Assembly (NCBI GenBank): GCA_963731905.1
Contig: CAVSXF010000007.1
Location: 2,535,830 to 2,599,829, forward strand
Length of the DNA: 64,000 bases
Origin: an uncultured Acidimicrobiaceae bacterium
GTDB lineage: Bacteria; Actinomycetota; Acidimicrobiia; Acidimicrobiales; RAAP-2
Direction of reading: 5' to 3'
In this document: positions 17,622 to 48,829 of the stretch, piece by piece
Position numbering within the stretch: position 1 is the first letter of the stretch
Layout of the letters: every line of letters starts with the position of its first letter
Program-made: the position numbers and the translations under genes
The notes under the pieces: generated by a model
Told to the model about the DNA's origin: nothing
The model's input: only the letters and a program-made list of their open reading frames with translations
Databases searched by the model: none

Positions 17622-17648
17622 GGCAGAGGCGCGCGGCGACGCCCTCGG

Positions 17649-18898
17649 CTATTTGGTCCAGCCGAGATCGTCGAGCGTGCGGCCGATGGCCGGAATGTCG
17701 GCCTCGATGTCGCTCACGAGGAGCTCGGACAGCGACAACGGCTTCGGATCGCCCCTGCCGAGGACGTAGCGGTACTCGAGACCGGGCACGACTTTCGGCC
17801 AACTTCCAGTAGCAGGTGTTGACGCCGCCGGAGGGAAACAGCTCGATCACGGCCGCACCGGGAGCCGCGAACGTGAGGTTGACCAACCCAGCACTGTGCG
17901 CGCCCACGATCATCGATGCCTGTGCGAACGTCTCGATCTGTTCGAGGGCGGACAGCTTCCCGGGGTCGACCATGTCGAAGCCGTGACCGCTGAGGTAGTC
18001 CATCAACTCGGGCTCGTTGTCGACGCGGCGGTTGTTCATGGCGCCGCCACGGGTGACGTAGATCGCCGCGGCCTTCGATCCGCTTGATCTTCGGCGGCAG
18101 CAGGGTGCGGCGCAAGTACTCGATGACCCACGGCGGATTGATGATGGTCATCGAGGCCGGCGTCGGGACGATCAGCGTCTCGGCAACGACGTGGCGGGTC
18201 TCGGAGCTGTCGATAACCCGTCCCAGGTCGATGCCCATCATCTCGAGCAACTCGCGCTGGAAATGGGTGGACTTCGGCGCATACCAGAGGTCGGGCGGTG
18301 CGACGTCAGGACATTGCTCGAGCACGCCGAGGCGAGGCAGCACATCGATCATGAAGTGGTAGTAGTTCGTGTCGCCCTGCAGCGCGAGGAGGCCGAGCCT
18401 TCCACCCACTTCGAGGGGCAGGCCGGGGAAAGGGTGCAGGAAGATCGGGTGTTCGCGGGCGCGACTGGTCCCGAAGTACAGGCTCACCTCGACGAGCAGA
18501 GTCGTCGTTGCCCGTGATCACCGCGTTGTGCGGTGACAGGACGCGGCCGTGCGGGAGCTCGGCGACGGCGACGCGGCGGACGTGCTCCGAGAGCCACGGC
18601 ACGTAGTCAGCGCTGCGATCGGGGAGGCCCTTCGGGACGGTGCGAGTCAGCATCTCGGGCGGTCGGACCGTCAGGCAGCGTCCGCCCGTGGTGGCGCCGC
18701 CTCCTCCATGCTCTCCACGTACCCGGTGGGCAGGTAGCCACCGCGCAACTGACTGGCGCGTACGGTCGCCGGCGCGACCATGCGGGTCGCCTGTGTGTAC
18801 GCCGGCTTGAGGTACGGCCACATGGGGCGCAGGCGCGGTGACAGCCGGACCACCGCTAGGCCTCCCGCGGGCCAGGGCGACGCTCCCGGCACTGTCAT
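17649..18898 (-). pseudogene. GT61/DUF563-type glycosyltransferase; about 3 frame changes
   Basis: Stitched from ORFs 18671, 18306, 17714 and 17317. Contains NYYHFMIDVLPRL and VGAHSAGLVNLTFA (the G-x-H-x-AGL-x-N motif of GT61). The C-terminus reads through to TK-stop at 17649 only if one A of the run at 17793-17795 is removed. Confidence 0.65.
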
Positions 18899-19609
18899 GC
18901 CGTTACGCCGCCGGCCGGCGGCGGGCGAAGACGACGAGACCCATCCAGGTGCTCGTCGGCAGATAGCGCTCGGTAGCGCCGATCACCTTGCGGAGGCGGG
19001 GCCACGGCTTGAAGTACTGCTCGAGCCCGGTGCGATGGGCCAACGCCCAGTCGAAGTCTGCGTCGAACACCCGGGCCAGATCGCGCGCGCGTGTTCATCT
19101 TGTAGGCGGTGTGAAACACGTCCTGCGCTTCGCGGTCCAGGTTGCAGGTGGGCGACGGCGCCGGCGTGACGCTCGTTGGGCACGACTCGGGCGACGACCG
19201 AGAGCAGGGAGCGGCGGCTGACGGTGCGCCCGACGAAGGTGCCGCCCGGGCGCAGGACGCGGGCCAACTCCTTGACGAAGGCCTCGGGGTCGGTCACGTG
19301 CTCGAGCACGTAGTCGCTGACGGCCAGGTCGACCGACGCGTCGTCGAGCGGCCAGCGGCCGTCGTCGCCGATGAGGCGGAACTCGTCGATGACCGGGTTG
19401 GCCGTGCCGGCGTCCTCGATGTCGATGCCGATGACGGTGCGACCCGGGCCCCGGAGGTCCTGCCAGGGGCCGCCGGGCTGGTCGAGCTCGACGGCGGCGC
19501 CGCGGCCGCATCCGACCTCGACGACGAGCTTGGCGTGGGCGGCGAGCGCCTGGGCGCTGACGAAGAAGACGTGGGCGCTGTCGGTGCCGAGGATGCGGTC
19601 GTCGAACAT
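18893..19609 (-). pseudogene. Class I SAM-dependent methyltransferase (Methyltransf_11/23-like); 2-3 frame changes
   Basis: ATG at 19609. Contains VVEVGCGRG, DLAVSDYVLEHV and LRPGG. The tail was recovered in two other frames, ending ARRRPAA-stop at 18893. Confidence 0.6.
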
Positions 19610-19699
19610 CTCGCCGAGGCCGAGGTAATCCGACGGGGCCGACTTCGGGGTGCGGGCGCGACGCGGCGCGCTCGTCGCCCCTCTTGGTTCGGTGTTCGG

Positions 19700-21217
19700 C
19701 ACGCGCTTATGGAGAACCTGGGAGGGCGCGGCGTGCCGGCCGCGGCCGTCAGTGGTGTCCAGGGCCGGCGGGTCACGGGCGCGCGCGCGGCGGGCCCGTC
19801 GGTTTCGACTGGCGCCGGATCCGCTGCGGCGTGCCGGCCGACCGTGCCGCGGACCCGGCGCGGCTGACCGTTGGTGACGAGTGCCGGTGTTTCGGGCAGT
19901 TCGACCGGGAGCGCGATGGCGTCGTGGGCGGGCGCCGGCGGCGGTGCGTAGTCGCGGAACGTGAGCGCGAGGAGGAACGGCATCCAAAACCATCGGTCGA
20001 CCAGTTCCGGGCCCTGCATGGCGAAGAACAGATCGGCGACGCATGCCGCGAGGACCACGTCGCGCATGGGGTCCCAGTTCTTTCCGGCGCGTATTCGGCC
20101 GTGCAGAAGCCGACTGAAGGCGGAGCCCACCATGATGATGAGGCCGACCAGCATGAAGATGCCGCCGCCATACCAGTACAGGGCAATCAGGTTGTGCGGC
20201 GGGTAGTACACGTAGAGCGACCTGTCGAAGTAGACGGCCAGCGTCTGCTGATCGAGCCCGTGACCGGTGATGGGCTTCTGGAGGATCTCGCTCCAGGCCT
20301 TGTCGATGGTGTCGATGCGCAGTTGCAGCGTCCCGCCGCCCGACCCCGCGTTGGAGTTCGTCGTCTTTTCGATGCGCGTGATCGGATCGAGTTTCGAGCC
20401 GCGGTCGATCACGCCGAACACGAGCAGGTAGACGGCGGCCAGTGCGAGCACGACGGACACGACCGTCTTGAGCGGCACCCCGCGGGCGATGAAGAGCACG
20501 AGGAGCCCGACGATCACGGCCCCCATGCCCGAGACGCTCGCGGCGAGCAGGAGCGCCATGGCGATCACGAGGACGCAGCCGCTGAGGTACCAGTGCCGGC
20601 GCCAGCCGATCTGGAGCAGCAGTCCGACGCCCAGGATGATGCCCAAGGCGAACACGATGCCGGCCAGGTTCGGCTGGTTGCTGAGTCCGACCGCCCGCGA
20701 GTTGCCGCCGATCGTCCCGCTCCCCGCGGCGATGGAGCCGGCTTTGGGGAGGAAGACGTGCAGCGTCACCTGCAGGATGGCGACGAAGGCCGACAGCGAT
20801 GCTCCCGGCGATGAAGAACCCGATGGCGCGTTGGAGGTGCAGCGTCGTGCCCAACTGCTGGCGGAGCAGGTACTGCAGGATGAAGAACACGTAGACCGCG
20901 TTGAACACGACGATGACGGACTGCGGCACCGCGTCGGCCTGCGTGCTCGCCAACATGCCGGCCAGCAGGAACATGAACGCGCCGACGTACCAGGCGGGCG
21001 TCCGGGGTGCCCGGGGCGGCGGTTTTCGGGCGAGGACGAGAAAGATGAAACCCAGCAGGAAGATGGCGTCGCTGACGTTCAGACCATGGGTGACCTTGAA
21101 CCGCAGCAGGGGCAGGAAGAACATGCCGACGTACAGAAAACCGCGTGAGATGAACACGAAGAGGTCTTCCTGTTTCGACGCCTTCTTCCAACTCGCCCAC
21201 GCCCCGGCCACCTGCAC
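19700..21217 (-). pseudogene. O-antigen ligase/polymerase-domain (Wzy_C-like) multi-pass membrane protein; at least 1 frame change
   Basis: N-terminal part in ORF 18983-21217 and body in ORF 19294-20769. About 10 TM helices and a large loop containing YYPPHNLIALYWYGGGIFMLVG. The 3' end is approximate. Confidence 0.65.
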
Positions 21218-21288
21218 CCCCTAAAAATACATGGCGGCCCACAGGCAAAGACAAAGAATTCCACCTGCGGACCCCTGTAGCATTTCGA

Positions 21289-21309
21289 ATCCTCCCTTCG
21301 GCGGAGGAT
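21289..21309 (+). other. Stem-loop ATCCTCC-CTTCGGC-GGAGGAT in the divergent intergenic region
   Basis: 7-bp perfect stem with a C-UUCG-G tetraloop-like apex. The 3' arm GGAGGA is a Shine-Dalgarno-like sequence 12 nt upstream of TTG 21321. Confidence 0.3.
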
Positions 21310-21320
21310 GATTCAATCGT

Positions 21321-22295
21321 TTGGCTGAGTTGGAGAACCACAAGGAAGCCAAACCTTGTGGGTTAATCTCCCAAATGGATCAGGTCAAGACTGAAAAGGA
21401 TTACTCTCCTACCACAGCGGAGACACAACGGGTTCGGACGATTGTGACTGAGAACAGTGACCATTTCGGCACGCGTCAGCCGGCGGTGCAGGCCAGCGAG
21501 CGTTCGGGGATCGCCGAATACGGGCGCATCCTCTGGGACCGCAAGTGGATCATCATCATCGTGTTCGTCATCGGCGTCGGCGGCGTGCTCGGTTACTGCG
21601 TGATCAGCGGAAAGACGTACACGGCGGAGGCCACTGTGCTGCTCGAACCTCCGGTGTCGACGCTCTTCTCGAGCCAAACGGCCAACAACGCTACAACTGC
21701 GCTCGTCAACGTGCAGGACGTCATCCAGGTCATGCAGAGCTCGTCGGTCTCCAACATCGTGTCCCGGACGATCCCCAACCCCCCCTCGGTCTCGGTCGCA
21801 CAGGTGGGAACGCTCGCAACCACCGACGTGGTGACCGTGTCCGCGTCGTCGAGCAGCCCGGAGACCGCGGCCGCCGCAGCCAACGCCTACGCCAACGCCT
21901 ACATCAACTTCGAGCGCGGCATCGACAAGGGCGTGTTCACCTCGGCCGCAACGCAGGTCTCCAACAAGCTGCAGACGGTGCAGCTGGCGATCTCCAACCT
22001 GGACAACACGATCAGGTCGACGCCGACAGGCGTCAGCCAGACCGCCGAGGAAGTGCAGCTCGGTGACCTCGAAAACCAGCAGTCCTCTTTGGAGAACCAA
22101 CTGCAGGAATACCAGTTCGCGGCTACCCAGGGCACGGACACCGAAGTCGGCCGGGTGATCTCCTCCGCCTCCGTCCCGACCAAGCCCTCGTCGCCGCACA
22201 CGATCGAATACGTGATCCTCGCGGCCATCTTCAGCCTCATCGTTGGCATCGGCCTCGCGCTGCTGGTCAACGCGATCAGCCCTCGCCGGGTGTAG
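21321..22295 (+). CDS. Polysaccharide chain-length determinant (Wzz/PCP-like) protein
   Basis: 324-aa ORF (alternative ATG at 21375). TM1 (WIIIIVFVIGVGGVLGYCVI), a periplasmic coiled-coil-like segment (LQTVQLAISNLDN, LENQQSSLENQLQEYQ), and a C-terminal TM (YVILAAIFSLIVGIGLALLV). Confidence 0.7.
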   Translation: MAELENHKEAKPCGLISQMDQVKTEKDYSPTTAETQRVRTIVTENSDHFGTRQPAVQASERSGIAEYGRILWDRKWIIIIVFVIGVGGVLGYCVISGKTYTAEATVLLEPPVSTLFSSQTANNATTALVNVQDVIQVMQSSSVSNIVSRTIPNPPSVSVAQVGTLATTDVVTVSASSSSPETAAAAANAYANAYINFERGIDKGVFTSAATQVSNKLQTVQLAISNLDNTIRSTPTGVSQTAEEVQLGDLENQQSSLENQLQEYQFAATQGTDTEVGRVISSASVPTKPSSPHTIEYVILAAIFSLIVGIGLALLVNAISPRRV

Positions 22296-28257: not shown

Positions 28258-29478
28258 GTGCGACTGACGGCCGCCCGGCCGAACGCCGTGACCACGCGTA
28301 CCTTCTGCACAGTCCTCTCGACGAACTACCTGCCCAAGGCGCTCGCGCTCGGCGAGAGCCTGCGACGCCACGAGGACGGCGCCCGGCTCAAGATCCTCTT
28401 CATCGACCACGCGGACGACGAAGGCCTGCCGCAGCTCGAGGGCGTCGACTGCCTGAGCACGGCGTTCCTCGGGCTGCCCCGCCGCACGGTCATGGAACTG
28501 GTCATGTCGTACGACCTCGTCGAGTTCGCAACCGCGATCAAGCCGCTCCTGTTCAAGCAATTGTTGCGTGACGCGGACCAGGTCTTCTACCTGGACCCGG
28601 ACACGTACGTGGTCTCGCCCATGGCCGAGCTGTCGCCCGCGTTGTCCGCGTCTGAGGGTGGCATCTTGTTGACACCGCACTTCCTGCGGCCACCGCCGCG
28701 CGACGCTGAGATCACCGACGGCCACATGTTGCTGGTGGGCGTCAACAATCTCGGATTCGGTGGGTTCGATCGGCGCTCCTCCGACATGCTCGACTGGTGG
28801 TGGGGGCATCTGCGGACCGAGTGCCTCTACGATCCGCTGGCGGGATTGTTCGTCGACCAGAAGTGGATGGACATCGGCGCCACGTTGTTCGGCGCAGCGT
28901 CATTCCGGCACGCGGGCTACAACGTCGGCGTCGCGAATCTGTCCGAGCGCCCCCTGGCCCAGGACGCCGACGGGTACTACATCGCGGGATACGGCGACAG
29001 GTTGCGCCTGTTCCACTTCCATGCGTTCGACTCGAGCACGCCGGAAAAGCTCTCGGTGCGCTTCCGCCACACGACAGAGAACGAATTGACGGACGAGAGC
29101 GCGGTGCTCCAGCTGTGCAAGGAGTACGCCGACATCCTCGTCGGATACGAGCAGAGTCTTCCGCCGGCTGAGCCGTACCCGTACTGGTTCGACACCCGGG
29201 GTCGCCGGATCTCTCGCCAGCTTCGCCGGGCCTACGGCCGGGAGACGCAGACCAGCGCGAGCCCTCTCCCCTCGCCCTTCGAGCCGTCCGAGGCCGACGC
29301 CTACGAACGCTGGCGCCGGCAGGCCTGGCGGCCGATCGCCCGGGGGTTGATCGGTGAGACAGCCAAGTGCGTCCGCATCGTCATCCCCGAGGCGTACGAA
29401 CAGGTGCGCAAGCGGTTCCCGAAGTTGACCAGCAAGTTGAACGAACGCTTCTCCGGCGGAGCGGGCAGCTGGGGCTGA
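28258..29478 (+). CDS. Putative nucleotide-sugar-dependent glycosyltransferase (GT-A-like; family not identified)
   Basis: 406 aa, intact. The N-terminal TFCTVLSTNYLPKALALGESL and the YLDPDTYV (DxD-like) motif resemble GT8-like/GT-A transferases. The assignment is weak. Confidence 0.45.
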   Translation: MRLTAARPNAVTTRTFCTVLSTNYLPKALALGESLRRHEDGARLKILFIDHADDEGLPQLEGVDCLSTAFLGLPRRTVMELVMSYDLVEFATAIKPLLFKQLLRDADQVFYLDPDTYVVSPMAELSPALSASEGGILLTPHFLRPPPRDAEITDGHMLLVGVNNLGFGGFDRRSSDMLDWWWGHLRTECLYDPLAGLFVDQKWMDIGATLFGAASFRHAGYNVGVANLSERPLAQDADGYYIAGYGDRLRLFHFHAFDSSTPEKLSVRFRHTTENELTDESAVLQLCKEYADILVGYEQSLPPAEPYPYWFDTRGRRISRQLRRAYGRETQTSASPLPSPFEPSEADAYERWRRQAWRPIARGLIGETAKCVRIVIPEAYEQVRKRFPKLTSKLNERFSGGAGSWG

Positions 29479-29505
29479 TGGCCTGCTGAGCCGGCCCGCC
29501 CACGC

Positions 29506-30246
29506 TCAGTACTCCGAGGGTGGGTACCCCAGCTTCGCGATCAACCCCGGCACGACCTGCTCGAGTGCGAGGTAGTGCTCGGGCTTGAACAGCTCCTGAT
29601 AGCTCTGGCGGCGCACGCGGTAGTGCGATTCCGAGCTCGGGTCGGCGCGCTCGGCCAAGTCCCTCTTCTGCAAGGCCTCACGTGAGGTCTCGGTAAGGAC
29701 CCGGTCCAGTTCGGACTGCGAGAGCTCCACCTCGCAGTGGTCCAGCATGCCTTTCACTGCAGCGGCGTGGTCGGCGGCTATGTCCTCCAGGCGCCACGTG
29801 GCGACGCTCGGGTCCTTTTCCTCGACCCCGACCCACGTCGCCATGTCACGCAGGTGGCCTTCTCCGTTCTTGAGGAGCCAGAGCAACTGGTCGTCGAGCG
29901 ATTTCCCGTCCAACGCGGCCTCGATCTCACGCGCGTTCCTGAGACGGCGGTGCGTGAACGTGGAGCCGTACGCCGAAACCACGATGTCGCGCGGATCACG
30001 AAAGACGTACACCATGCGGTGGGGAAGCGGCTTGGGCATCGCCTGATACTGGTCGTAGGAGATGTAGAGACCCGGCACGAAGGTCCCGCCGGGGAAGCCG
30101 CGCAGCGGATGCTCCCAGTACGCCAGTTGGGGAAGGGTGAACAACCCGGTGTGGGAGCGGACAACCGGATGGTCGAACAACGCCTTGGCCCACTGGCTCC
30201 CCGACTTGGGGCACGAACCGGTGAAGATGTTCGCCACTTCGGGCAT
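29506..30246 (-). CDS. Sulfotransferase (PAPS-dependent family)
   Basis: The 5'-PSB loop PKSGSQW and the 3'-PB motif RDPRDIVVS are both present. 246 aa, intact. Confidence 0.8.
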   Translation of the reverse strand: MPEVANIFTGSCPKSGSQWAKALFDHPVVRSHTGLFTLPQLAYWEHPLRGFPGGTFVPGLYISYDQYQAMPKPLPHRMVYVFRDPRDIVVSAYGSTFTHRRLRNAREIEAALDGKSLDDQLLWLLKNGEGHLRDMATWVGVEEKDPSVATWRLEDIAADHAAAVKGMLDHCEVELSQSELDRVLTETSREALQKRDLAERADPSSESHYRVRRQSYQELFKPEHYLALEQVVPGLIAKLGYPPSEY

Positions 30247-30411
30247 TGTCCCGCGCGCCCGTAGAACTTCAGCCGCGGCCGCGGGCCGCGAGATGCGCGA
30301 CGTACTTGAGGGAGTTACGAGCCGGTTGCCACTGGACGGCGCGTGTGACCTGAGTGCGGATGGTCCCCTCTTTCCCGGCCACTTCCGACGTCGTCATGCG
30401 GTTCGGCAGCC

Positions 30412-31272
30412 CTACGCCTTCCTGCGCCAGTAGGCCCCGAAGCCGTCGATGTCCACGATCTCCTCGTCGATCCCGTTGGCTTTGCGGTAGTCGATGATGG
30501 CCTGGCCGGCCTGGGACTGGTGGCTCCCGAAGTCGTCGACGATGCAGAAGCCGCCTGGTGAGAGCTTGGGATAGAGGGCCTCGATCGCCTGCCACGTCGA
30601 CTCGTACATGTCGCCATCGAGACGCATGACCGAGAGGCTTTCGATGGGGGCGACCGGCAGGGTGTCTTTGAACCATCCCACCAGGAACTTGACCTTGTCG
30701 TCGAGCACCCCGTAACGCTCGAAGTTGTGACGCACCTGGTCCGCGCCGACGCCGAGGCCGCCGCGGGTGTGGAGGTCGTCACCCTGGTCGGCCGGGTACA
30801 GGCTGGCGTTGGGCGGGGGCAGGCCCTCGAAGGAGTCGGCCACCCAGACCGTACGGGTGGTGTCGCCCCGGGCGGCGAGGTTCGCCTTCATGAAGATGCA
30901 AGCGCCCCCCCGCCAGACCCCGGCCTCGATGAGGTCGCCCGGCACATCGTCGTCGAGCACGGTCTGGACACAGTCCTGGATGTTGTCCATCCGCCGCAGC
31001 CCGATCATCGACTCGGCCCGGGCCGGCCAGTCCCGACCAACCTCACGCTGGGCCGCGTCGTACGGCTTCTTGTAGACGATCTCGAGGTTCATACGGGCGG
31101 CGAGCTTGCCGGCGGTGTTCGCGGCGCGACGCTTCAGCGAGGTCGAGCCCGCCGTCCGCACGCCGCCCAAGATGCTGTCGTTGTCCTCCGCCAGCGCGCC
31201 CGTCAGGCTGCGCTTGAGCAAGTCGAGGTACAGACGGGTGGACTCGCTCGTCTGCTCCACCGGCACGGGCAC
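30412..31272 (-). CDS. TylF/MycF-family O-methyltransferase (macrocin O-methyltransferase-like)
   Basis: Contains GDLIEAGVWRGGACIFM, FEGLPPP and MRLDGDMYEST, characteristic of the TylF family. 286 aa, intact. Confidence 0.85.
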   Translation of the reverse strand: MPVPVEQTSESTRLYLDLLKRSLTGALAEDNDSILGGVRTAGSTSLKRRAANTAGKLAARMNLEIVYKKPYDAAQREVGRDWPARAESMIGLRRMDNIQDCVQTVLDDDVPGDLIEAGVWRGGACIFMKANLAARGDTTRTVWVADSFEGLPPPNASLYPADQGDDLHTRGGLGVGADQVRHNFERYGVLDDKVKFLVGWFKDTLPVAPIESLSVMRLDGDMYESTWQAIEALYPKLSPGGFCIVDDFGSHQSQAGQAIIDYRKANGIDEEIVDIDGFGAYWRRKA

Positions 31273-31374
31273 AGAATAGCAGTCGCCGAAATGGACTCCG
31301 AAGGCCGCGTCGGCCCGTTCGCCGGCGCAGGCGGACCCGCGTGCGGTGCCCCTGGCCGCATGAGGGCCCCTCCG

Positions 31375-32106
31375 CTACATGGTGTAACGGCGCGCCTCGG
31401 CGTCGCCGCGATGGAACGCGGGCAGGTCGGGTAACTCGCGTACCGGTTCTGCCGGATTGCCGCGGTAGAACGTTTGCTCCTTCGTCAATTTTGTCGCAAC
31501 GACCGAGCCCGCCGAGATGATGCAGCGCGCCGGCACCCTGGTCCCACTGAGGAGGATGCAGCCGGACATGACGCCGCTGTGCGGTCCGATCTTGACAGGG
31601 CCGGTGACCTGCTCATCCCGGACGAGATCGAGGCTGTGAGTGAGGATCTGGCACCGGTAGCCGACCAAACCGGCGTGGTCGCCGATTTCGACGCTGTCGG
31701 AGCAGTCGATTTCATGGCCGACGGTGATCTTGGACCACTCCCCCATGACGAGACGGGCACGCCGGTTCTTCGTCCGGAACGCCTGATCGGCCATCGGATG
31801 GGCCGAGATGAAGTTCCTGGTGGCGATGCTTGCACCCTTTGCCAGCCGCAACTCTTCGAGGTTCCGGATCACATTGAGCGATCCGATGTTGGTTTCGGGG
31901 CCCATCGAGACGTGCTGCACGAGGATGAGGCTGCGACCGATGTACGCGGTCGGATCGAGGTCCCACCCGAAGACCCGCCGTCCCACTTCCGCGCGGAGTG
32001 ATGCGGGAAGGACGAGCATGAGAAACGCCCACAGTCGGCGCACGGCGGCAGCCCTAGCGCTTCCCGCGCCAAGAGGCGCCGAAGCCGTCGGCATCGTCAT
32101 CCTCAT
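31375..32106 (-). CDS. Hexapeptide-repeat (left-handed beta-helix) acyl/acetyltransferase
   Basis: N-terminal membrane-like helix, WDLDPTAYIG, then imperfect hexapeptide repeats (IGDHAGLVGYRCQILTHS; IGPHSGVMSGCILLSGTRVPARCIISAGSVV). It resembles WcaF-like polysaccharide O-acetyltransferases. Confidence 0.7.
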   Translation of the reverse strand: MRMTMPTASAPLGAGSARAAAVRRLWAFLMLVLPASLRAEVGRRVFGWDLDPTAYIGRSLILVQHVSMGPETNIGSLNVIRNLEELRLAKGASIATRNFISAHPMADQAFRTKNRRARLVMGEWSKITVGHEIDCSDSVEIGDHAGLVGYRCQILTHSLDLVRDEQVTGPVKIGPHSGVMSGCILLSGTRVPARCIISAGSVVATKLTKEQTFYRGNPAEPVRELPDLPAFHRGDAEARRYTM

Positions 32107-32254
32107 CGACGGTCACGTCCGTCAGCACGCCCGTGCGGGTGCGCTCGTGCCGGTCGAGGTACAGGCGCGTGAACTCACTCGAATGCTCGACGGGCACAAG
32201 GACCGAGTGTAGCGAGCAGCCGGCCGAGGGCGGAAGGGTCGAGCCTGCGGGCGG

Positions 32255-32908
32255 TCAGGCGGTCCGGTCGCCGCGGCGCAACCACGCCATCCGGTCGGAG
32301 ATCGGACGGACCATGACCGCCGGGTTGCCCCGGTACAGCGCCTGATCCTGCGTCAGCCTCGTGGTGACGACCGAGCCCGCCGAGATGATGCTCCGCGGCG
32401 GGATCCGCGTCCCAGCCAACAACATGCACCCGGACATGACGCCCGAGTACTCCCCGATGACCACCGACCCGGTCACGTACCGGTCGCGCATGAGGTCGAT
32501 GGAATGCGTGAGCACCGTCGACCTGAAACCGGCGAGGGCCGCATGCGAGCCGATCTCGAGGGTGTCGACGCAATCGATGTAGTGGTACGACGCGATCTGC
32601 GAATATTCCGCCAGGAAGATGGCCGGGTTGCGTTTGTTCAACGCATCGGTCGGATGGTCCCACCAACCCTTGATCAGGTTGCCGGACCCGATGGCAGAGC
32701 CCTCAGCCATCCGAAGCTCGTTCAGGTTGGTGATCACGTTGCGAGCTCCGATGCGGGTACCCGGCCCCATCGACACCTCACGGATGACGAGCACACTCGG
32801 CCCGATGTAGGCCGTCGGATCAATGTCCCACTTGTAGATCCACTTCGCCACGATCCGCTTCAGCGACATGGGAAGGAACTTGAAGACATACGCAAGGGCG
32901 AGGCGCAT
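32255..32908 (-). CDS. Hexapeptide-repeat acyl/acetyltransferase (tandem paralogue of 31375-32106)
   Basis: Same architecture as its neighbour and alignable with it throughout (WDIDPTAYIG; IGSHAALAGFRSTVLTHS; IGEYSGVMSGCMLLAGTRIPPRSIISAGSVV). Confidence 0.7.
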   Translation of the reverse strand: MRLALAYVFKFLPMSLKRIVAKWIYKWDIDPTAYIGPSVLVIREVSMGPGTRIGARNVITNLNELRMAEGSAIGSGNLIKGWWDHPTDALNKRNPAIFLAEYSQIASYHYIDCVDTLEIGSHAALAGFRSTVLTHSIDLMRDRYVTGSVVIGEYSGVMSGCMLLAGTRIPPRSIISAGSVVTTRLTQDQALYRGNPAVMVRPISDRMAWLRRGDRTA

Positions 32909-33367
32909 CTCAGCCGTTGTCCGCCCTCGCGCCTGCGGCGCTCACCCTGCGGGCAGCTCCTCCCGGCGGTGCAGCCCGAACTTTCACGCGACGCTCGCTC
33001 TCCCTGTCCACGGGCTGGAACTGTAGTGCTCGGCCCATGGAATCCTGAGAGCCCGGAGCCGCCCGCCGGGCGTGACCGTCACCGCTCACCCACGGGCTCC
33101 AAGACGGCAATTTCTCAGCTACGGCCGCAAGCCCAACGCCCCTTCTGCGTTGGTCCATCGTGGACAACCGCCCCGGTGTGTCTGTTCGGGCCCTTCCTGG
33201 CCAGGGGATAAATTGCCTCCCTACACGCGGGGTCGGCCGGAGGATTGGGAACGAGAACTTCGACAGCACGCAGCCAGCCGCGTCGTAGCAACCGTCTGCG
33301 GCGGGTAGATGCGCGGTACCCCTTGGTCGTCAATGGGCCTGGCTCCCGGTCGACCGATAACGGAACA

Positions 33368-33637
33368 ATGCGAAAGGACCTGAGAGTGGCCACAGACCAG
33401 GACAAGGCGCGAGCAGTTATTGCTGACTTCCTCACGTCCGCGGACAAGGGCGCCGCCGGGTGGAACGACGACACCGGCCTGTGGGGCGAGGGGCTGGAGC
33501 TGGACTCGCTCGAGGCGGCCGAGCTCTCGGCGCTGCTGGAGGACGCGTTCGGTTCGGATCCCTTCTCCGAGGGTGGGGACCTGCCAGAAACCGTCGGCGA
33601 CGTCGTGTCGTTCTATGTCACCGTTTCAACCGAGTGA
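33368..33637 (+). CDS. Acyl carrier protein (phosphopantetheine attachment site DSL)
   Basis: ATG at 33368 (alternative GTG at 33386). Contains the LELDSLEAAELSALLEDAFG helix II motif. The stop TGA overlaps the next gene's GTG (GTGA at 33634-33637). Confidence 0.8.
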   Translation: MRKDLRVATDQDKARAVIADFLTSADKGAAGWNDDTGLWGEGLELDSLEAAELSALLEDAFGSDPFSEGGDLPETVGDVVSFYVTVSTE

Positions 33638-35041
33638 TCCTGCTCCTCGAGGCCGCGGCCAGGGCTGAACCTGAGCGGAACGGCGGTCCTCACTTCGGGA
33701 GGCTCGGCGACGTACGGCCGAACTTCTCGAGGACGCCCGTCGTGTCGCCACGGCACTGCGCCGTCAGGGCATCACGCGTTTCGCCGTTGTGGAACCCGAC
33801 GCCGCGTGGGTGCTCCGGATTCTGGCCGGCGCCGCGCTCGCCGGCGCCGAGCCCTGCCAGTACCAACCCGACACCGACGCGGCGGAGTTCGCCGACCACG
33901 CGTCAATGCTCGACCACAAGTTCGTCGTGTCCCATCGAGACGACCTCGACGGCCCCTTCGAGGTGCTCCGCCCCGAGACGCTCGTGGCCGAGGACGCCGA
34001 CAACACCTTGCGGGCGGGCGAGGACACCGAACAGCCGCTCATGATCCGCACGACCGGCACCACCGGCCTGCCGAAGGCGGCGCGCCACGACTGGAGGATC
34101 CTCGGCAAGACGGTCGCGAGCGTGCGGCCGATGCCCGAGCAACGCTGGCTCCTCGCGTACGGCCCGCAGCAATTCGCCGGCGTCCAGGTGCTGCTGCACG
34201 TGGCCGCGAGCCAGGCGACGCTCGTCGCACCGTTCCCGCGCCAGCCCAAGGACGGCCTGGACGCGCTGCTGCACCGAGGGCGTCACCTGCGTCAGCGCGA
34301 CACCGACGTTCTGGCGCTTCCTCCTCGCCGAGGCCCGCAGCCGCAAGGTCACCCTGCCGCCGCTCGAGCAGATCACCTTGGGAGGCGAGGCCAGTCCCGG
34401 CGACCTGTTGGAGGAGATCCGGGCCACGTTCCCCGGCGCCAAGGTCTCGCAGGTGTACGCGTCGACCGAGTTCGGGTCCATCACGTCGGTCCGCGACGGC
34501 AAGCCCGGCCTCGCGGTCGATTCGCTCTGGAGCGAGGCGAACCCGACGTCCAACGTCCGCGTCACCGACGGCGAACTGTGGGTGCGGGCGGGCGCCGGCA
34601 TGCTCGGGTACGCCGGCGAGTCCTCTGCGGTTCCTTCTGCCGACGACGCCAACGCCGACGCCGAGCCGCGGCGAGTGGCGCCGCACCGGCGACCTCGTCG
34701 AGATCGTCGGCGACCGCGTCATGTTCCGGGGCCGCAAGTCCGAGGTGATCAACGTGGGCGGGGTCAAGGTGCACCCCTTGCCGGTCGAGGACCGGATCAC
34801 CGGCCTCGACTCGGTCGCGCTGGCCCGCGTCTTCGGGCGCCCCAGCAAGCTGACCGGTGCCATCGTCGCCGCCGAGATCGTGCCGGTGGGCGGCGCCGAG
34901 AGCGCCGACGTCGAGGCGATCAGGGCGCAGATCAAGGAGGCGGTGGCGGACCTGCCACGAGCCTGGCAGCCGCGTAGCGTGAGCTTCGTGGACGCCATCG
35001 AGACCAAGGGCGGCAAGACGATCCGGGGGATGGAGGACTGA
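33634..35041 (+). pseudogene. AMP-dependent synthetase/ligase (acyl-ACP/CoA ligase, short form); 3-4 frame changes
   Basis: Core motifs are spread over three frames: IRTTGTTGLPKAA, QVYASTEFG, GEWRRTGDLVEIVGDRVMFRGRKSEVINVGGVKVHP, and the terminal KGGKTIR. The stop at 35039-35041 overlaps the ATG of the SDR gene. Confidence 0.75.
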
Positions 35042-35789
35042 TGGCGGAGGCTGAAGCGCAGCCGCTGGTCGCACTCATCACGGGTGGCAGCAAGGGGCTG
35101 GGCGCCGGGCTCGTCGAGGCCTACCTGGACGCGGGCTACTGCGTCGAGACCTGCTCGCGCTCGTCGACCGACAAGGTCAAGGCCTGGGAGAACGACCCGG
35201 AGCTGAAGGAGCGCTTCCATTTCGCCGCGGCCGACGTCTCCAAGAGAGACGACGCCGAGCGGTTCGTGAAGGATGCGGCCAAACGGTGGGGCCGCATCGA
35301 CGTACTGGTGAACAACGCCGGCGTCGCCCGCGACGGTGTCATCGCGCTGTTCAGCGACGACGACGTCGACACGGTGGTCGACCTCAACCTGAAGGGCACC
35401 GTGTACGTCACCCGCGCCGCCAGCCGCGTGATGCTGCGCCAGCACTCTGGTTCCATCGTCAACATCTCCTCGATCGTCGGCCTCTCGGGGTATCGCGGCC
35501 TCACGGTCTACGGCGCCACCAAAGCGGCACTGGACGGGTTCACCCGTGCGTTGGCCCGTGAGCTCGGGTCACGCGGTATCACGGTGAACAGCGTCGCCCC
35601 CGGCTACCTCCGCACCGAGATGAGCCACGGCCTCGACGAGGATCAGCTCGTGCAGATCGCAGGCGGACACCGATGGGGCGCCTGGGCGACCCTGCGGACG
35701 TCGCCCGCGCCGTCCTCTTCTTGACGGATCCGGCCAACAACTACCTGACCGGCCAGGTCATCGTCGTCGACGGCGGGCTGACCTGCTGA
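35041..35789 (+). pseudogene. Short-chain dehydrogenase/reductase (3-oxoacyl-ACP reductase FabG-like); 1 frame change near 35665
   Basis: Contains TGGSKGLG, NNAG and YGATKAAL (YxxxK). The conserved tail [38 protein letters not shown]-stop (35787-35789) is in a different frame. Confidence 0.8.
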
Positions 35790-35793: not shown

Positions 35794-36633
35794 CTAAGTC
35801 AGAGGCTGTGAGGTCGCGGCGATGATCTGATCAAGGATCGACTGGTCCGGCAGGGGTGGGCACTCGACTGAAGGCAGGCGACGCACGTGGTCGAACGCCT
35901 GTTTGATGTACGGGCCTTCGATAGCCGGAGTATGGCACCCTGCAACGGTCTTGATGTCGAGTCTCTCGATGCCGTCCACGTAGCGCCCGAACTTTTCAAC
36001 GTCCACAAGCGACAGCCACGGGCACAACGCGCCGAACGCGAAGAGCGTCATGCCGAAGTCCCAGAACTCAGCATCAAGGTCGGCGACCGGCGTCTCGGGT
36101 GCCGGGAGCGGTGTGGCGAAGCTGTCGACTGCCCAATAGACGCCGGTGGCCGAGTCAAAGAGACCCCGCGTGGTCGGAGAGTCGTAGAGCGGCGGCCGTA
36201 TGGCATGCAAGGTCCGATCGCCAACGTCGAAGGACTCTTCGTGCATGACCCAGCGGCATCGCTCGAGAGGAAAGTCGAAGCAGTTCGTGTGACGTTCGAC
36301 CATGGCCCAGTTGCAGACCAACGTTGCGTTTGAGCATGCCGTCATGACCTCGTCGAGATTGCCGACGTGGTCGACGTCGTCGTGCGACACGAACACCCAG
36401 CGCACGTCCTTTGGCTCCACAAGCGAAAACGCGTCATTCAACCACTTTTCCCGGTTCGCTGGGGTCCCCGTGTCGACAATTACCGGCTCCTTACCGAGGA
36501 TGACCATGGAGTTGAGGTACACGAACAATGGTTGTCCGAGGGCGGGTTGCACCTGATGGATCACGAACGTGTCCGGAGCTATTCGGGTCGGTGGGACATC
36601 AAGGTTCGGCACGACCGGAGCAAACGTGGTCAT
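35794..36633 (-). CDS. MBL-fold protein of the diiron (flavodiiron/ODP-like) type, no flavodoxin domain
   Basis: ATG at 36633 preceded by GGGAGGAG. Metal motif SHDDVDH (HxDxDH, compare HxExDH in diiron MBL domains). The later segment RPPLYDSPTTRGLFDSATGVYWAVDSF resembles the LHWPDS...LFSxDxFG region. Confidence 0.6.
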   Translation of the reverse strand: MTTFAPVVPNLDVPPTRIAPDTFVIHQVQPALGQPLFVYLNSMVILGKEPVIVDTGTPANREKWLNDAFSLVEPKDVRWVFVSHDDVDHVGNLDEVMTACSNATLVCNWAMVERHTNCFDFPLERCRWVMHEESFDVGDRTLHAIRPPLYDSPTTRGLFDSATGVYWAVDSFATPLPAPETPVADLDAEFWDFGMTLFAFGALCPWLSLVDVEKFGRYVDGIERLDIKTVAGCHTPAIEGPYIKQAFDHVRRLPSVECPPLPDQSILDQIIAATSQPLT

Positions 36634-36832
36634 CGGGACTCCTCCCATCGCCAAGGGACCCATCAATGATCCACCCGTTTGCCGAACTGGGTCAAGGGTG
36701 GTGAAGGCAACCGCCCGTACCAGTTGAGCAGTCAGCTTTCCCACCTCTACTCGAAGTCAGATGAAGCGAATCGGACCAGGAACCTCGTTGTGTGACATGT
36801 TCCAGGCCGATTGTGGCCCAGCTGCTTCCTGC

Positions 36833-38254: not shown

Positions 38255-38653
38255 TCAGTCCAGCCGCTCCAGGAGCCACTTCGGCCCCACCACCTCCGCC
38301 CCCAGCGCCTCGGCCCGCCGCCGCAGCTCGCGATCCGCCGTGACGAGCACGACCCCCTGGCCGGCCTCCTCCCCTGTCCCTTCGGGGGCGGCGGCGGACG
38401 CATCTCGGACGACGTCGACGAGCGCATCGTCACCGCTCCCCGCCGCGTGCGCCACCGTCACGCCCTCCGCCGACCCGCTCGATGCTCCCTCACGCGCCTT
38501 GCCCTCCAACACGACAACGACCGGCGAACGCAGCCGCCCCGCCCCCACCGCCGCCCGCACCCCGTCGACGAAGGTCCGAGCGGCTCCGGCCCGGTCCTTC
38601 CACCAGCCCGTCGGACGGGATCCGATCACATTGGCTGCGTCGACGACGAGCAC
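38255..38653 (-). CDS. NYN/YacP-like domain protein (predicted RNase fold)
   Basis: An in-frame GTG at 38653 gives VLVVDAANVIGSRPTGWWKDRAGA..., typical of actinobacterial NYN-domain proteins. In this sequence there is no stop between it and the upstream permease. Confidence 0.55.
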   Translation of the reverse strand: MLVVDAANVIGSRPTGWWKDRAGAARTFVDGVRAAVGAGRLRSPVVVVLEGKAREGASSGSAEGVTVAHAAGSGDDALVDVVRDASAAAPEGTGEEAGQGVVLVTADRELRRRAEALGAEVVGPKWLLERLD

Positions 38654-38682
38654 TGCCCCCCAAACCCCGATCCCCGACCGAG

Positions 38683-39484
38683 TCAGCCCGCGCTTCGGCG
38701 ACCAGTCCCAACGCCGCATCGCCACATAGAACCCGGCCGCACCCCAGATGAGCATGACCAAGATGTCGTTCCACACCGACGTCCCCGGGATCCCGTTGAA
38801 CGTGTCGACCGTCGCCAGGATCAGATGTCGGACCGGGAAGATGCCAGTCACCGTCGCCACGGCCGACCCCGGCTTCACCGGGAAGTAGAGGCCCGAGAAC
38901 GCGATCACGATGAAGAAGACCAGGCTCACGATCGGGCCGGCCGAGTCGGCGTTGGGAACCAACATGGAGACGCCGGTCCCCAGAGCCGTGAAGCTCAGCA
39001 TGCCGACGATCACGACGAGGATGAAGAGCCCAACTTCGTGCGGCCCGTGCACCCCGTAGAACAGCCCGACGATCAACACCAGCACGATCTGAATGGCCGC
39101 GATGATCATCCAGTTCAGGAACATGGCGGTCAGCAGCATCCACGTCGGCAGCGGGCTCAGCCGGAGCCGCTTGAGCAATCCCATCTCGCGCCGGTTCACC
39201 AGCGAGATCGCCATGACGTTGAAGCAGGCCGCCATGATCCCGTACGCCATGAAGGCGGGCAGGTAGTACTGCCCGAGATTGATGTGCTGCAAGAACCCGA
39301 CCGTCGAGTGCTTCTCGATCGACTCGAAGAAGATGACGAAGATCAGCGAGAACACGATCGTGATGCCGGCGCCGATCGGGTTCAGCCAGAACGACAGCTG
39401 CTCGAAGTACACCTGGCGGCCGATGAGCGGCAGGTCGCTCATGCCGCGGAACGAGCCGCGCACCGGCACCTCGGCCGTGCTCAC
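38683..39484 (-). CDS. ABC-2 type exporter permease
   Basis: GTG at 39484 overlaps the ATPase stop (GTGA). Six TM helices. A stop (TGA, 38683-38685) is reached only if one G of the GGG run just upstream is removed; otherwise the ORF reads on into the NYN gene. Confidence 0.7.
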
Positions 39485-40418
39485 GACGCCGCCACCTCGT
39501 CGGCCCGCACTCCCGCTGACCGACCTCGTCGAGCCCGAGATACACGTCCTCGAGCGACACCCGCAGCACCGACAGCCCCGCCAGCGCGATGCCCACCGGC
39601 CAGCGCCCACCCCGTCAACTCGTGGAGCACCCGCACCTCGTCCTCGGTGTGGATCTCGACGTGCCCGTCCTCCGCCGGTGTGGCCTCCATCGGCAGCTCC
39701 GCGACACCGACGCCCTCGGGCAGCCTGAACCGTATGGTGACGGCCCCGACGTCCCGCCCCCCTATGGAATCCGGGGGTGCCACTGGCCACGATCTCCTGA
39801 CCGAACAGCACAGCCACCCGGTCGCGCCAGCGCTTCCACTTCGTCCATGTAGTGCGTCGTCAACAGGACAGTCGTGCCCTCGTCGGACAGCCGCTTGATC
39901 AGCTCCCACGTGTCGCGCCGCCCCGACGGATCGAGTCCGGTCGTCGGCTCGTCGAGGAACAGGAGCTCAGGGTTGCCGATGATCCCCAGCCCGACGTCGA
40001 GGCGGCGCTGCTGGCCGCCCGAGAGCCGCTTGATCCGGTCGTCTGCCTTCTCACCCAACCCGATCAGTTCGATCACCTCGTCGACCGGCCGCGGGTTCGG
40101 GTAGTAGCCCGCATTCCGGGTCAACACCTGGCGCACCGAGTAGTAGGGCTCGATCGCCAGTTCTTGGAGTACCACGCCGATGCGGGATCGCAGCCAGCGC
40201 TGCGTGCTGACCTCGGCGGGGTCCACACCGAGCGTCTCGACATTCCCGCTGCTCCGTGCCCGGAACCCCTCCAGGATCTCCACACAGGTCGTCTTGCCCG
40301 CACCGTTCGGCCCGAGTAGGGCGAACACCTCGCCCTTCTGCACTTCGAAGCTGACGTCGCGCACGGCCACGGCCGTGCCGTAGGACTTCGCCAGGTGGTC
40401 AACGCTCACAGCGGGCAT
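39481..40418 (-). pseudogene. ABC-2 type exporter ATP-binding protein (DrrA-like); at least 3 frame changes
   Basis: Walker A GPNGAGKTT, signature LSGGQQRRL and Walker B LFLDEPTTGLD lie in ORF 39762-40418. The C-terminal regulatory part (AVLFGQEIVASGTP, VRVLHELTGWAL, LSVLRVSLEDVYL) is recovered in other frames. Confidence 0.75.
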
Positions 40419-43973: not shown

Positions 43974-44387
43974 TCAATCGTCGAACGGGTGCTCGCGCAG
44001 ATACTGGATTATCCGGTCCAAAACCTGCTGAGTCGCTGCGACGGCCTCAGGTGGGTATTCGAACCGTTTGTCAAAGACAAGGTGCATCGGGTCAACCTCC
44101 GCTATCCCCTTGTCGATAAGCCGATAAGGAGCGTCTTGAGGCACTTCAGCCGCGCGCAGGCGGTCAGCCAGATCTCCGCTCGTCCCCATCGCCAGCAGAG
44201 CGTCCAGAAGGGGCTCACACATCCCCCGCGTGGGGTTTTGCCACCCATTCTCCTGAAGATCGTCCTGAAGGGTTTCGATAAGCGCGTTCCTACCCTCCTC
44301 GTTGCTGACAAGGTCCGAAATTCCGAAGGAGCGTCGCACGACTAGGAGCCACTGCTGTTGACGATGTGGGTCTGACTCGGCATTCAT
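43974..44387 (-). CDS. Hypothetical protein (137 aa), no family recognised
   Basis: Ordinary, non-Arg-rich composition in a lower-G+C stretch. No motif recognised. Confidence 0.4.
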   Translation of the reverse strand: MNAESDPHRQQQWLLVVRRSFGISDLVSNEEGRNALIETLQDDLQENGWQNPTRGMCEPLLDALLAMGTSGDLADRLRAAEVPQDAPYRLIDKGIAEVDPMHLVFDKRFEYPPEAVAATQQVLDRIIQYLREHPFDD

Positions 44388-44610
44388 CGAGATATCACCC
44401 CAAGCTGACCCGAGCAGGCTTCCGCCTGTGGGTCCGAACCTCGTTTAAGCCCCGGACGATCATAGGGTGCGGTCCGCTGGCTCCCTAGTGGTAGCGCCTC
44501 GCACAACCGGCTGGGGCAGGAGGCCATCAAGACTGGCCGCCTGAGTGTCGCCCGACTCCGGGCAGAAGGCCCTCCTTGCAGGACGCGACGGAACTATCTG
44601 ACGCGCTGCG

Positions 44611-45693
44611 TTAGAGGTGATACAGCAAGATGCCCGCCTCCTCGTCGCGCTGCACAGCGCCCGTAGCCCGCAGGTGTTCCAGGTCCGCGAAGGTCTCGGC
44701 TTCCGCCATGGAACCCCATGACCGCGGGGCGAACAGTTCATGTGAGAGCTCGACGACGTTGGCCCTGCCTGTCGCGTCACAGATCTGGAGCAGCCGATCC
44801 AACCGTTCGTCGTGGTGGCGCTTGATCTCCTCGGTCCGGCCGTGCAGGTCGTCGAAGGGCTGTCCGTGCGCCGGGAGCACTATGGATACGTGGGGCAAGG
44901 CGGATAAGCGGTCGAGCGACTCGATGTACATGAGGAGCGGGTCGCCCGGTATCAGGCCCGAGATATGAGGGGTGATGGTGGGCAACACCTGGTCGCCTGC
45001 GAGGAGTACGCCTTCCTCTTCGTCGTACAGACAGAGATGATCGTCAGTGTGTCCCGGGGTGAAAAGGCCAACCCAGTCCCGACCGCCCAACGTAATGTGG
45101 TCACAATCGGTCAGGCGGTGCGTGGGACGCGGTGGCTTGAACCACTTAAAGAGCTGCTCCCGATGAGCGAGCATCTTGGCTCGCGCTTCGGGTGGTGGCC
45201 CGATGGTTGACCCGCCCCAGGGTGCGGGGCGCTCGAGACGGACGTTGAGGATCGGGCTCTCTGCGGGATCAATATCGTCGGACGCCTCAAGTTCGCGGTC
45301 GTCGATCTCATCAGGATCAAAGAAGGTACGGAAGCGGTCGGAGGCCACAATGGCGCCACCGCTTTCCTCGGCCAAGAGCCCCGCGCCACCGAAATGGTCA
45401 GGGTGCGAGTGCGTGACGACGATGGTGTGGACCCGATCTATGGGGATCTCCGCCGCGTCCATGCGACCCCGGAGCGCCTTCCACGACTCTTCACCCGGGA
45501 GCCCTGGATCGACCAAGGTGAAACCATTGTCATCCTCGAGAGCGTACGTGTTGACGTGGCCTAAGCCGGTGAAATCGATAGGCAGCTGCAGACGCCGGAT
45601 GCCGGGCACCACCTCGACGATGTCCGGCGAGGCATCCATCTGCTCTTGTTTGGGCGGACGGGCAAGCGTCTCGATCGATTCGGGTGGTGTCAC
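44611..45693 (-). CDS. MBL-fold metallo-hydrolase
   Basis: 360 aa, intact. Contains HxHxDH (VVTHSHPDHFGG) and later GHTDDH and LPAHG metal ligand motifs. Confidence 0.8.
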   Translation of the reverse strand: MTPPESIETLARPPKQEQMDASPDIVEVVPGIRRLQLPIDFTGLGHVNTYALEDDNGFTLVDPGLPGEESWKALRGRMDAAEIPIDRVHTIVVTHSHPDHFGGAGLLAEESGGAIVASDRFRTFFDPDEIDDRELEASDDIDPAESPILNVRLERPAPWGGSTIGPPPEARAKMLAHREQLFKWFKPPRPTHRLTDCDHITLGGRDWVGLFTPGHTDDHLCLYDEEEGVLLAGDQVLPTITPHISGLIPGDPLLMYIESLDRLSALPHVSIVLPAHGQPFDDLHGRTEEIKRHHDERLDRLLQICDATGRANVVELSHELFAPRSWGSMAEAETFADLEHLRATGAVQRDEEAGILLYHL

Positions 45694-45803
45694 AGGGAGA
45701 ACTTACCTGGGCATGACCCAATGCTCGATCCTGGCAGGCAGAGGGCACTCATGAGGTCTGGGAGCGGGCAAAGATGTGCGGATGACACAGGTCCTGGCAA
45801 TCG

Positions 45804-46100: not shown

Positions 46101-46110
46101 CTCGGTCACG

Positions 46111-46473: not shown

Positions 46474-46624
46474 CCGAGCACGCTCTCACCCGGAGAAGTG
46501 GGGCAGCGTCATTGCGATCGAGATCGTGCCCATCGAGGATCGGTTGCGTGAAGTCGTATGGTCCCCGATCGTCGGGCGAACGTCAGTTGAAGCCCGGTGG
46601 TAGGGGGGGCATCATTGCGGGCAG

Positions 46625-47597: not shown

Positions 47598-47641
47598 CCC
47601 AGCATCGTATGAGTTTGAGACATTGGTTTGCCGTGCTCATT

Positions 47642-48823: not shown

Positions 48824-48829
48824 AACCGA

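Follow-up and report, generated by a model that had tools for sequence, protein, structure and literature searches.

A putative glycan-decoration module with a dedicated acyl carrier protein in a surface-polysaccharide locus of an uncultured soil Acidimicrobiales bacterium

In the mbt-2 cluster (mbtK-N) of Mycobacterium tuberculosis the acyl carrier protein (ACP) MbtL stands with the ligase FadD33/MbtM, the acyl-ACP dehydrogenase MbtN and the divergent acyltransferase MbtK, and the PapA enzymes of the mycobacterial sulfolipid and phthiocerol dimycocerosate (PDIM) systems transfer carrier-bound acyl groups to hydroxyls, including those of sulfated trehalose. The tetronate set of Vibrio cholerae O1 includes an ACP and an acetyltransferase of the left-handed beta-helix (LbH) type, and its redox enzymes belong to families other than the FabG-like short-chain dehydrogenases/reductases (SDR). 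Here we analyzed eight adjacent genes at 28.3-35.8 kb of a 64,000-nucleotide stretch (hereafter the window; contig CAVSXF010000007.1 of assembly GCA_963731905.1, positions 2,535,830 to 2,599,829), which encode a GT8-like glycosyltransferase, a sulfotransferase, a TylF-type O-methyltransferase, two LbH acyltransferases (LbH1 and LbH2) and, divergently, an ACP, a short ligase and an SDR. They belong to a surface-polysaccharide locus of an uncultured soil member of Acidimicrobiales, and with a probability of roughly 0.6 we read the region as a glycan-decoration module within that cell-surface polysaccharide locus.

The tetronate module of V. cholerae (wbeK-O / rfbK-O, VC0248-VC0252) is likewise a dedicated set in an O-antigen locus, which builds and attaches a short hydroxy-acyl group. 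Its WbeL protein has 471 aa and a putative ATP-binding domain (PMC3441752). The window ligase (467 aa) is alike in size, the two being compared by size and description and not by sequence. The V. cholerae acyl group is amide-linked to perosamine, and partners of the GT8-like, TylF and sulfotransferase kinds are not described there; perosamine genes or an aminotransferase family were not seen among the neighbour families inspected around the present module, an inspection which did not scan every open reading frame (ORF). In Flavobacterium psychrophilum the genes wfpC-wfpG include an ACP specific to the O-polysaccharide (wfpD) and a 3-ketoacyl-ACP reductase (wfpF), and the product of wfpG, an LbH protein homologous to PglD, is predicted to pass ACP-bound dihydroxyhexanoyl to a sugar (PMC6519341). 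The logic is the same, a carrier-bound hydroxyacyl group being handed to an LbH transferase, but there two ketosynthases build the chain, while the window has none and a ligase would load the ACP; that system also N-acylates an amino sugar by a PglD-type LbH enzyme in a Bacteroidota host, whereas the window LbH proteins look WcaF-like. The closest architecture known to us is that of mbt-2, compared by description only, with its ligase-loaded stand-alone ACP, redox tailoring and oppositely oriented acyltransferase; it differs in having a siderophore lysine acceptor, a long chain, an acyl-ACP dehydrogenase and a GNAT transferase. The likeness to the PapA systems lies in the HHxxxDG motif and weak PapA_C match of the partner protein found with a Propionibacteriales-type version of the cassette, whereas the window partner is an LbH protein and no polyketide synthase is involved. 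Distinct here are the loading by a ligase without ketosynthase, the WcaF-like LbH partner, and the link to GT8-like, TylF and sometimes sulfotransferase genes in Actinomycetota. A preliminary description of the locus had known of no account of these functions together as a unit; literature searches on this gene combination, on TylF with sulfotransferase in polysaccharides and on Nocardioides cell-wall glycopolymers returned nothing relevant, and the claim of novelty is weakened, comparable ACP-dependent glycan-acylation modules having already been described.

All eight genes are present at, or a few bases off, the coordinates first given for them (28258-35789), and every domain assignment was borne out by profile searches or structure prediction. 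Gene boundaries over 28.2-35.8 kb were defined by GC content at third codon positions (GC3) together with homology (Table 1), the G+C content of the window being about 68%. The two overlaps from which translational coupling had been suggested are as described, the ligase start overlapping the ACP stop (GTGA, 33634-37) and the SDR start overlapping the ligase stop (TGATG, 35039-43). The 477-bp divergent region was scanned for Rfam matches and for promoter and terminator consensus sequences, and none was found.

The first gene had been called a putative GT-A transferase, and this holds at the level of the fold. No significant Pfam or NCBIfam match was obtained for the ORF from 28258, and the PF01501 (GT8) model was not significant (10.8 bits and E 0.36, with the cut-off at 24.3). 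Homologues with 60-94% identity number more than 1,494 and belong to no Pfam family; nearly all the named ones are labelled hypothetical, one UniRef entry reads "Glycosyl transferase", and the homologue length of 396 aa points to 28288 as the likely start. The AlphaFold2 model, made from an alignment of 42 sequences, has a predicted local distance difference test score (pLDDT) of 87.7, and its top Foldseek matches are glycogenin, LARGE1 and GT8 structures (E 1e-7 to 4e-6, target TM 0.55-0.63); a PDB profile search with the protein reached glycogenin only at E 0.08. D103-P-D105 in YLDPDT and the motif HFHAFD are invariant in the 42 sequences. The protein therefore shares with GT8 enzymes (glycogenin, LgtC, the xylosyltransferase domain of LARGE1) a predicted GT-A fold, a DxD-type motif and a conserved histidine-rich motif, but its identity to them is just 14-18% and it carries a C-terminal helical extension of about 120 aa. 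Its modelled fold is GT8-like, but the sequence model does not place it in GT8.

The sulfotransferase matches Sulfotransfer_1 at 45.2 bits (cut-off 22), and the motifs by which it had been recognised as PAPS-type (3'-phosphoadenosine-5'-phosphosulfate-dependent), the 5'-phosphosulfate loop PKSGSQW and the 3'-phosphate motif RDPRDIVVS, are present in it and in its orthologues. Its true start is the ATG at 30397; a +1 indel near 30273, seen relative to L003 and L083, cuts the first 42 codons from the remainder, so that the reading frame is not intact, and the ORF from the internal ATG 30246 keeps all core motifs. Intact orthologues in two related loci, L001 and L003, have 290-295 aa. The TylF-type methyltransferase, also named correctly at first, matches PF05711 at 327 bits (E 7e-98) over profile positions 2-264 of 264. 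LbH1 and LbH2 are tandem hexapeptide paralogues as described, with 51% identity; LbH2 reaches 32.6 bits with Hexapep (cut-off 27) and LbH1 23.2 bits. The homologues of LbH1 are 222-225 aa long and its AlphaFold2 model is a beta-helix of low confidence (pLDDT 62). With the WcaF-family models NF007797 and TIGR04008 both proteins score 37-43 bits against a cut-off of 192, below membership, and by these scores they would be WcaF-like at best and not WcaF members.

The divergent set of a dedicated ACP with a DSL site, a short AMP-ligase and a FabG-like SDR was likewise upheld. The ACP scores 16.4 bits with PP-binding in the window, below the cut-off of 20.8, and its orthologues score 22.7-24.7 bits; the family profile matches solved ACPs at E 9e-8, and the LDSLE serine of the motif LDSLEAAELS is invariant across the family. 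The frame-corrected ligase matches AMP-binding at 90 bits and AMP-binding_C at 28 bits and contains the core motifs TTGTTGLPK, YASTE, TGD, GRKSE and GGK, its intact orthologues having 455-479 aa. The SDR matches adh_short at 200 bits and carries the TGxxxGxG, NNAG and S-Y-K motifs; its best NCBIfam models are FabG and acetoacetyl-CoA reductase, both under cut-off (241 bits against 297.75 for TIGR01830, the FabG equivalog), and judged from these profiles it is a FabG-like classical SDR and not the housekeeping FabG. In agreement with the first reading, ketosynthases were found neither in the module nor among the inspected representatives of the frequent neighbour families of 83 loci.

The conservation of the neighbourhood was surveyed around the GT8-like gene, taking a single genome for each GTDB species, which gave 80 loci, and two loci from ENA were added; neighbours were counted within 10 kb in the loci with nearly full flanks, 31 from Acidimicrobiales and 26 from other Actinomycetota. 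Most of the 80 loci belong to metagenome-assembled genomes (MAGs) of soil Acidimicrobiales/Acidimicrobiaceae, and the remaining ones to Nocardioides, Aeromicrobium, Marmoricola, Jatrophihabitans, Pseudonocardiales and Solirubrobacterales. TylF lies beside the GT8-like gene in 27/31 Acidimicrobiales and 21/26 other loci, and LbH1 with ligase and SDR in 26/31 and 9/26; the sulfotransferase is found there in 7/31 and 11/26, and an LbH2-type gene in 11/31 and 0/26. All 48 ligase loci have an LbH1-type gene, which is within 2.5 kb upstream in 43 and divergent in 44, and the SDR usually follows the ligase by no more than 40 nt. Two pieces thus prove conserved, one formed by the GT8-like gene and TylF and the other by LbH1 and its divergent ACP-ligase-SDR set, while the sulfotransferase and LbH2 are variable accessories in a variable island. 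The idea of the eight genes as one unit is thus retained for these two pieces and given up for the sulfotransferase and LbH2. The FadD and MFS genes, which had been noted immediately upstream, were ruled out as members of the module; they are beside it in 28/31 Acidimicrobiales and 0/26 other loci, which is lineage synteny.

Chance adjacency in a gene-dense variable region would be in keeping with the coming and going of the sulfotransferase and LbH2 among close relatives and with the absence of the whole ACP-ligase-SDR cassette from L006 and L007, but the core recurs in Acidimicrobiales, Nocardioidaceae, Solirubrobacterales, Pseudonocardiales and Jatrophihabitans with wholly different flanks. 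As a general account chance is very improbable, and for the core associations it is effectively refuted; the refuting condition named earlier, homologues never being co-located in related genomes, does not hold, the neighbourhood recurring in dozens of species-level genomes. Gene content varies even among close relatives, L002 being without sulfotransferase and TylF and L001 having two sulfotransferases and at least three LbH-type genes, and our reading of this variation is surface-antigen diversification. L002 (11328-12116) and, as homologues, 23/26 non-Acidimicrobiales loci also encode a third LbH-type protein, unrelated and about 226-262 aa long, whose C-terminus contains WWDW; it neighbours the GT8-like gene more often than the ACP cassette does and is absent from the window.

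A further 80 loci came from a metagenome scan with a profile of the ligase. Counted from the ligase, the gene just upstream is the ACP in 60/68 loci and the gene just downstream is the SDR in 43/48. Three ligase homologues with 68-70% identity, from one Propionibacteriales MAG (L084) and two JGI metagenome contigs (L085, L086), carry the same ACP-ligase-SDR cassette between a NUDIX/His_Phos_1 (MutT1-like) gene and ppk, beside pstSCAB (L084 7279-12135, L085 6118-10996, L086 2513-7440). The GT8-like and LbH genes are absent there; the divergent partner is a protein of 408-421 aa with the motif HHSIADG and a weak PapA_C match (25-27 bits against the Pfam cut-off of 30), and the cassette is also accompanied by a protein without annotation, about 356 aa long. 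HHxxxDG is the catalytic signature of condensation/PapA-type acyltransferases, a class which takes carrier-bound acyl donors. Of 27 loci with at least 3 kb of upstream sequence, 8 have an LbH1-type partner, 7 a PapA-like one and 12 another partner or none detected, the others including a different LbH protein or an SGNH/GDSL protein near FkbM, Methyltransf_24, GT2 and flippase-like genes. Solved structures yielded only remote matches, or none, to the ligase, the two LbH proteins, the sulfotransferase and the PapA-like protein.

Because non-LbH partners (PapA-like, SGNH) replace the LbH gene in other Actinomycetota, ACP-ligase-SDR is marked out as a portable, putative acyl-ACP donor unit which is kept across differing acyltransferase partners. 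This replacement by non-orthologous proteins of acyltransferase type is the best available support for the view that the divergent gene may use the ACP-bound acyl group, and the carrier-protein reading offered at first gains from the pairing of the same cassette with a condensation/PapA-type acyltransferase. A methyltransferase of CMAS-like / Methyltransf_11 type immediately precedes the ACP, in the same orientation, in 20/48 cassettes (methyltransferase-ACP-ligase-SDR; including L032 14479-15354, L034, L035, L039, L045 and L054), and the window has no such gene; its place beside the ACP fits chemistry on a thioester-bound acyl group.

Several points weigh against the glycan-decoration reading. 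LbH1 and LbH2 have family-level similarity, itself weak, solely to acetyl-CoA-dependent O-acetyltransferases (WcaF, maltose and galactoside O-acetyltransferases), and no feature of their sequences indicates use of an ACP. The ligase has no close characterised relative from which its substrate could be assigned. In L049 (1789-4458, Nocardioides sp. J54) LbH1 is divergent from methyltransferase-ACP-SDR and tblastn finds no ligase, so loading by this ligase is not universal and the ACP there would be loaded otherwise. Some of the same evidence is what one would expect if the functions were separate, with LbH1 and LbH2 acting as ordinary acetyl-CoA O-acetyltransferases and the cassette serving another acceptor (a lipid anchor, glycolipid or small metabolite) through another enzyme: the LbH proteins resemble CoA-dependent enzymes only, the cassette also stands outside glycan loci in Propionibacteriales, flanked by the MutT1-like gene and ppk, and an LbH1-type or PapA-like partner was undetected within 3.5 kb upstream in 12/27 loci. 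We consider this separation rather unlikely, since LbH1-type genes co-occur with the ligase in 48/48 loci and the divergent orientation is kept from Acidimicrobiales to Solirubrobacterales, and since loci without the LbH gene usually hold a PapA-like, other LbH or SGNH protein at the same position.

In the glycan-decoration reading, all steps of which we infer from homology and gene context, the GT8-like enzyme would add a sugar with its configuration retained, the TylF enzyme would O-methylate this sugar or its neighbour, and the sulfotransferase would O-sulfate the sugar from PAPS. The ligase would adenylate a small carboxylic acid and load it on the dedicated ACP; the FabG-like reductase, the CMAS-like methyltransferase of other cassettes and the lack of a ketosynthase together suggest a small beta-keto or similar acid, the best guess being a beta-keto acid such as acetoacetate. 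On the ACP the acid may sometimes be methylated before reduction, in cassettes with the CMAS-like gene, and the SDR would then reduce it to a hydroxyacyl-S-ACP. The divergent LbH1-type acyltransferase would move the acyl group onto a sugar hydroxyl, and LbH2, an extra paralogue, may serve another position or another donor. The same kind of deduction underlies the acyl substrate and acceptor named here, the sequence of the steps and the use by LbH1 of acyl-ACP rather than acyl-CoA.

A wider proposal, which we put forward as tentative and on balance doubtful, is that a ketosynthase-free cassette has been coupled several times in Actinomycetota to unrelated folds (LbH, condensation/PapA-like, SGNH) for the decoration of surface glycans, that LbH1-type proteins are acyl-ACP-using sugar O-acyltransferases, and that with the GT8-like, TylF and sulfotransferase enzymes they would yield a methylated, sulfated and hydroxyacylated glycan. 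We know of no acyl-ACP-using LbH sugar O-acyltransferase outside lipid A synthesis and, to our knowledge, no glycan of this kind has been reported from soil Acidimicrobiia or Nocardioidaceae.

The preliminary description had noticed frameshifts in the ligase and SDR, which are present, but had missed the one in the sulfotransferase. The ligase has +1 indels near 33680, 33719, 34272 and 34666 and the SDR a -1 indel near 35662, each located by comparison with L002, L003 and L083, so that six disruptions fall in three of the eight genes. Confirmation by tblastn or blastn against relatives was required for every accepted frameshift, and the GC3 hidden-Markov frame caller, which over-segments very GC-rich stretches, was used as a pointer only. 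The breaks are not special to the module. At least 14 single-base indels, mostly insertions, separate the window from the three related assemblies over 18-43 kb, with sites including 19085, 20803, 23653, 30273, 33680, 33719, 34272, 34666, 35662, 37062, 39530-39825 and 42415, and unrelated genes are broken as well (methyltransferase, Wzy, S15 peptidase, THAP4, ABC ATPase, MFS).

If the breaks were real, the ligase, SDR and sulfotransferase would be true pseudogenes, the pathway would be dead and only the CoA-dependent tailoring enzymes would work. Such decay would suit the concentration of disruptions in the module, where four ligase indels in 1.4 kb compare with about 0.4 per kb elsewhere in 18-43 kb, some 7 times the local background and an excess that random error does not fully explain, and it would suit the fragmented ligase and SDR of a second genome (L001/L008). 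Against it, split orthologues among all fetched loci occur only in nanopore MAGs (43/262 gene instances), with 0/117 in short-read MAGs and 0/40 in isolates (0/157 together). The broken frames of the window keep 85-95% amino-acid identity to their orthologues and high GC3, and the corrected ligase and SDR frames contain no stop codon and retain all ANL and SDR catalytic motifs. In the relatives L002, L003 and L083, which include the closest ones, both the ligase (467-479 aa) and the SDR (249 aa) are intact; in L083 (GCA_963778355.1) it is the sulfotransferase that is fragmented (11631-12567, with a 135-aa call), so different genes are struck in different long-read assemblies. Since frameshifts associate with long-read assemblies, the six breaks in module genes are most likely assembly errors and the window is probably from an unpolished long-read assembly. 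A dead pathway, which the earlier account had set as the outcome if the frameshifts proved real, is quite unlikely. Frame switching every few hundred bases in the GC3 model was also observed at 4694-11270, a branched-chain amino-acid ABC transporter region (BPD_transp_2, ABC_tran), and may reflect more indels or merely very GC-rich sequence.

Table 1. Features of the module and of the surrounding polysaccharide locus in window coordinates.
Feature	Position	Strand	Remarks
Upstream polysaccharide genes: NAD epimerase/dehydratase, two GT4, GT61, methyltransferase, Wzy_C, Wzz	14010-22292		Pfam matches; L002 synteny
GT8-like retaining GT-A glycosyltransferase (by predicted fold), 396 aa	28288-29478	+	Alternative GTG start 28258; AlphaFold2 and Foldseek
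PAPS-type sulfotransferase, about 296 aa once corrected	29506-30397	-	+1 frameshift near 30273; Sulfotransfer_1
TylF-family O-methyltransferase, 286 aa, intact	30412-31272	-	PF05711
LbH1, hexapeptide-repeat acyltransferase	31375-32106	-	Likely start GTG 32043, giving 222 aa
LbH2, accessory paralogue of LbH1, 217 aa	32255-32908	-	Hexapep
Divergent intergenic region LbH2/ACP, 477 bp	32909-33385		No ORF with coding GC3
Dedicated ACP, 83 aa, serine in LDSLEAAELS	33386-33637	+	PP-binding; family profile
Short adenylate-forming (ANL) ligase, about 467 aa	33634-35041	+	Four +1 indels; AMP-binding, AMP-binding_C
FabG-like classical SDR (ketoreductase), 249 aa	35041-35789	+	One -1 indel near 35662; adh_short
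Small protein (132 aa here, 122 aa in L002), ABC-2 membrane protein and ABC ATPase	38255-40418	-	L002 and L083 synteny

The setting of the module agrees with a role in glycan decoration, as was first suggested, Wzy, Wzz, GT4, GT61, epimerase and ABC-2 exporter genes surrounding it and a GH16 gene likewise belonging to the glycan context of the window. The closest relatives are L003 and L083, with about 90-91% DNA identity; synteny with the closest relatives extends from about 18 to 43 kb, and the region past about 41 kb is unrelated. Neighbour families in the relatives include GT4 and NAD epimerase/dehydratase by Pfam scan, and flippase, GDP-mannose dehydratase and sugar-phosphate transferase by sequence likeness. 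Together the genes at 38255-40418 would form a Wzm/Wzt-like exporter, with the ATPase frameshifted.

In 22-25 of 31 Acidimicrobiales loci the module has the ABC-2 membrane/ATPase pair next to it, and the ATPase has an additional domain at its C-terminus (PF26919). Export in E. coli O8/O9a-type systems is controlled by terminal methylation, and methyl or phosphate caps govern the chain length and export of some O-antigens. The GT8-like enzyme may by this comparison add a terminal residue, the methyl, sulfate and acyl groups marking the non-reducing end of an ABC-exported polysaccharide and controlling its length and export rather than decorating every repeat unit. All 26 non-Acidimicrobiales loci, however, keep the module without ABC-2 genes, and Wzy and Wzz genes are also nearby, and so we think a chain-terminating cap improbable, if less so than a dead pathway. 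The presence of both Wzy/Wzz and ABC-2 export genes leaves the target polymer ambiguous, a further point against the glycan-decoration reading.

An MBL-fold gene at 35794-36744 (- strand), abutting the SDR stop, was excluded from the module; it occurs in 2/31 loci and is shared only with L002 and L003. Farther downstream, 44000-58000 has a G+C content of 0.61-0.64 against about 0.68 and contains ORFs without family match (e.g. 54624-56249, 56490-57692) together with MBL-fold, GNAT, GDSL and methyltransferase genes; this part may be an acquired island.

Bacteria of the Acidimicrobiales and Nocardioidaceae abound in soil, and we know of little work on their surface glycans. The module predicts a concrete decoration, consisting of O-methyl, sulfate and a non-acetyl acyl ester, and it could be tested in the cultured strains Nocardioides halotolerans DSM 19273, N. 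dubius JCM 13008 and Nocardioides sp. SYSU D00038, of which SYSU D00038 carries the sulfotransferase gene as well. A practical lesson is that frameshifts in MAGs from long reads call for comparison with short-read data before a gene is termed a pseudogene. Two unnamed families gain a functional context, that of the GT8-like 396-aa protein and that of LbH1, and the wiring of one cassette to differing acyltransferase folds suggests how unusual acyl groups might be delivered with no ketosynthase.

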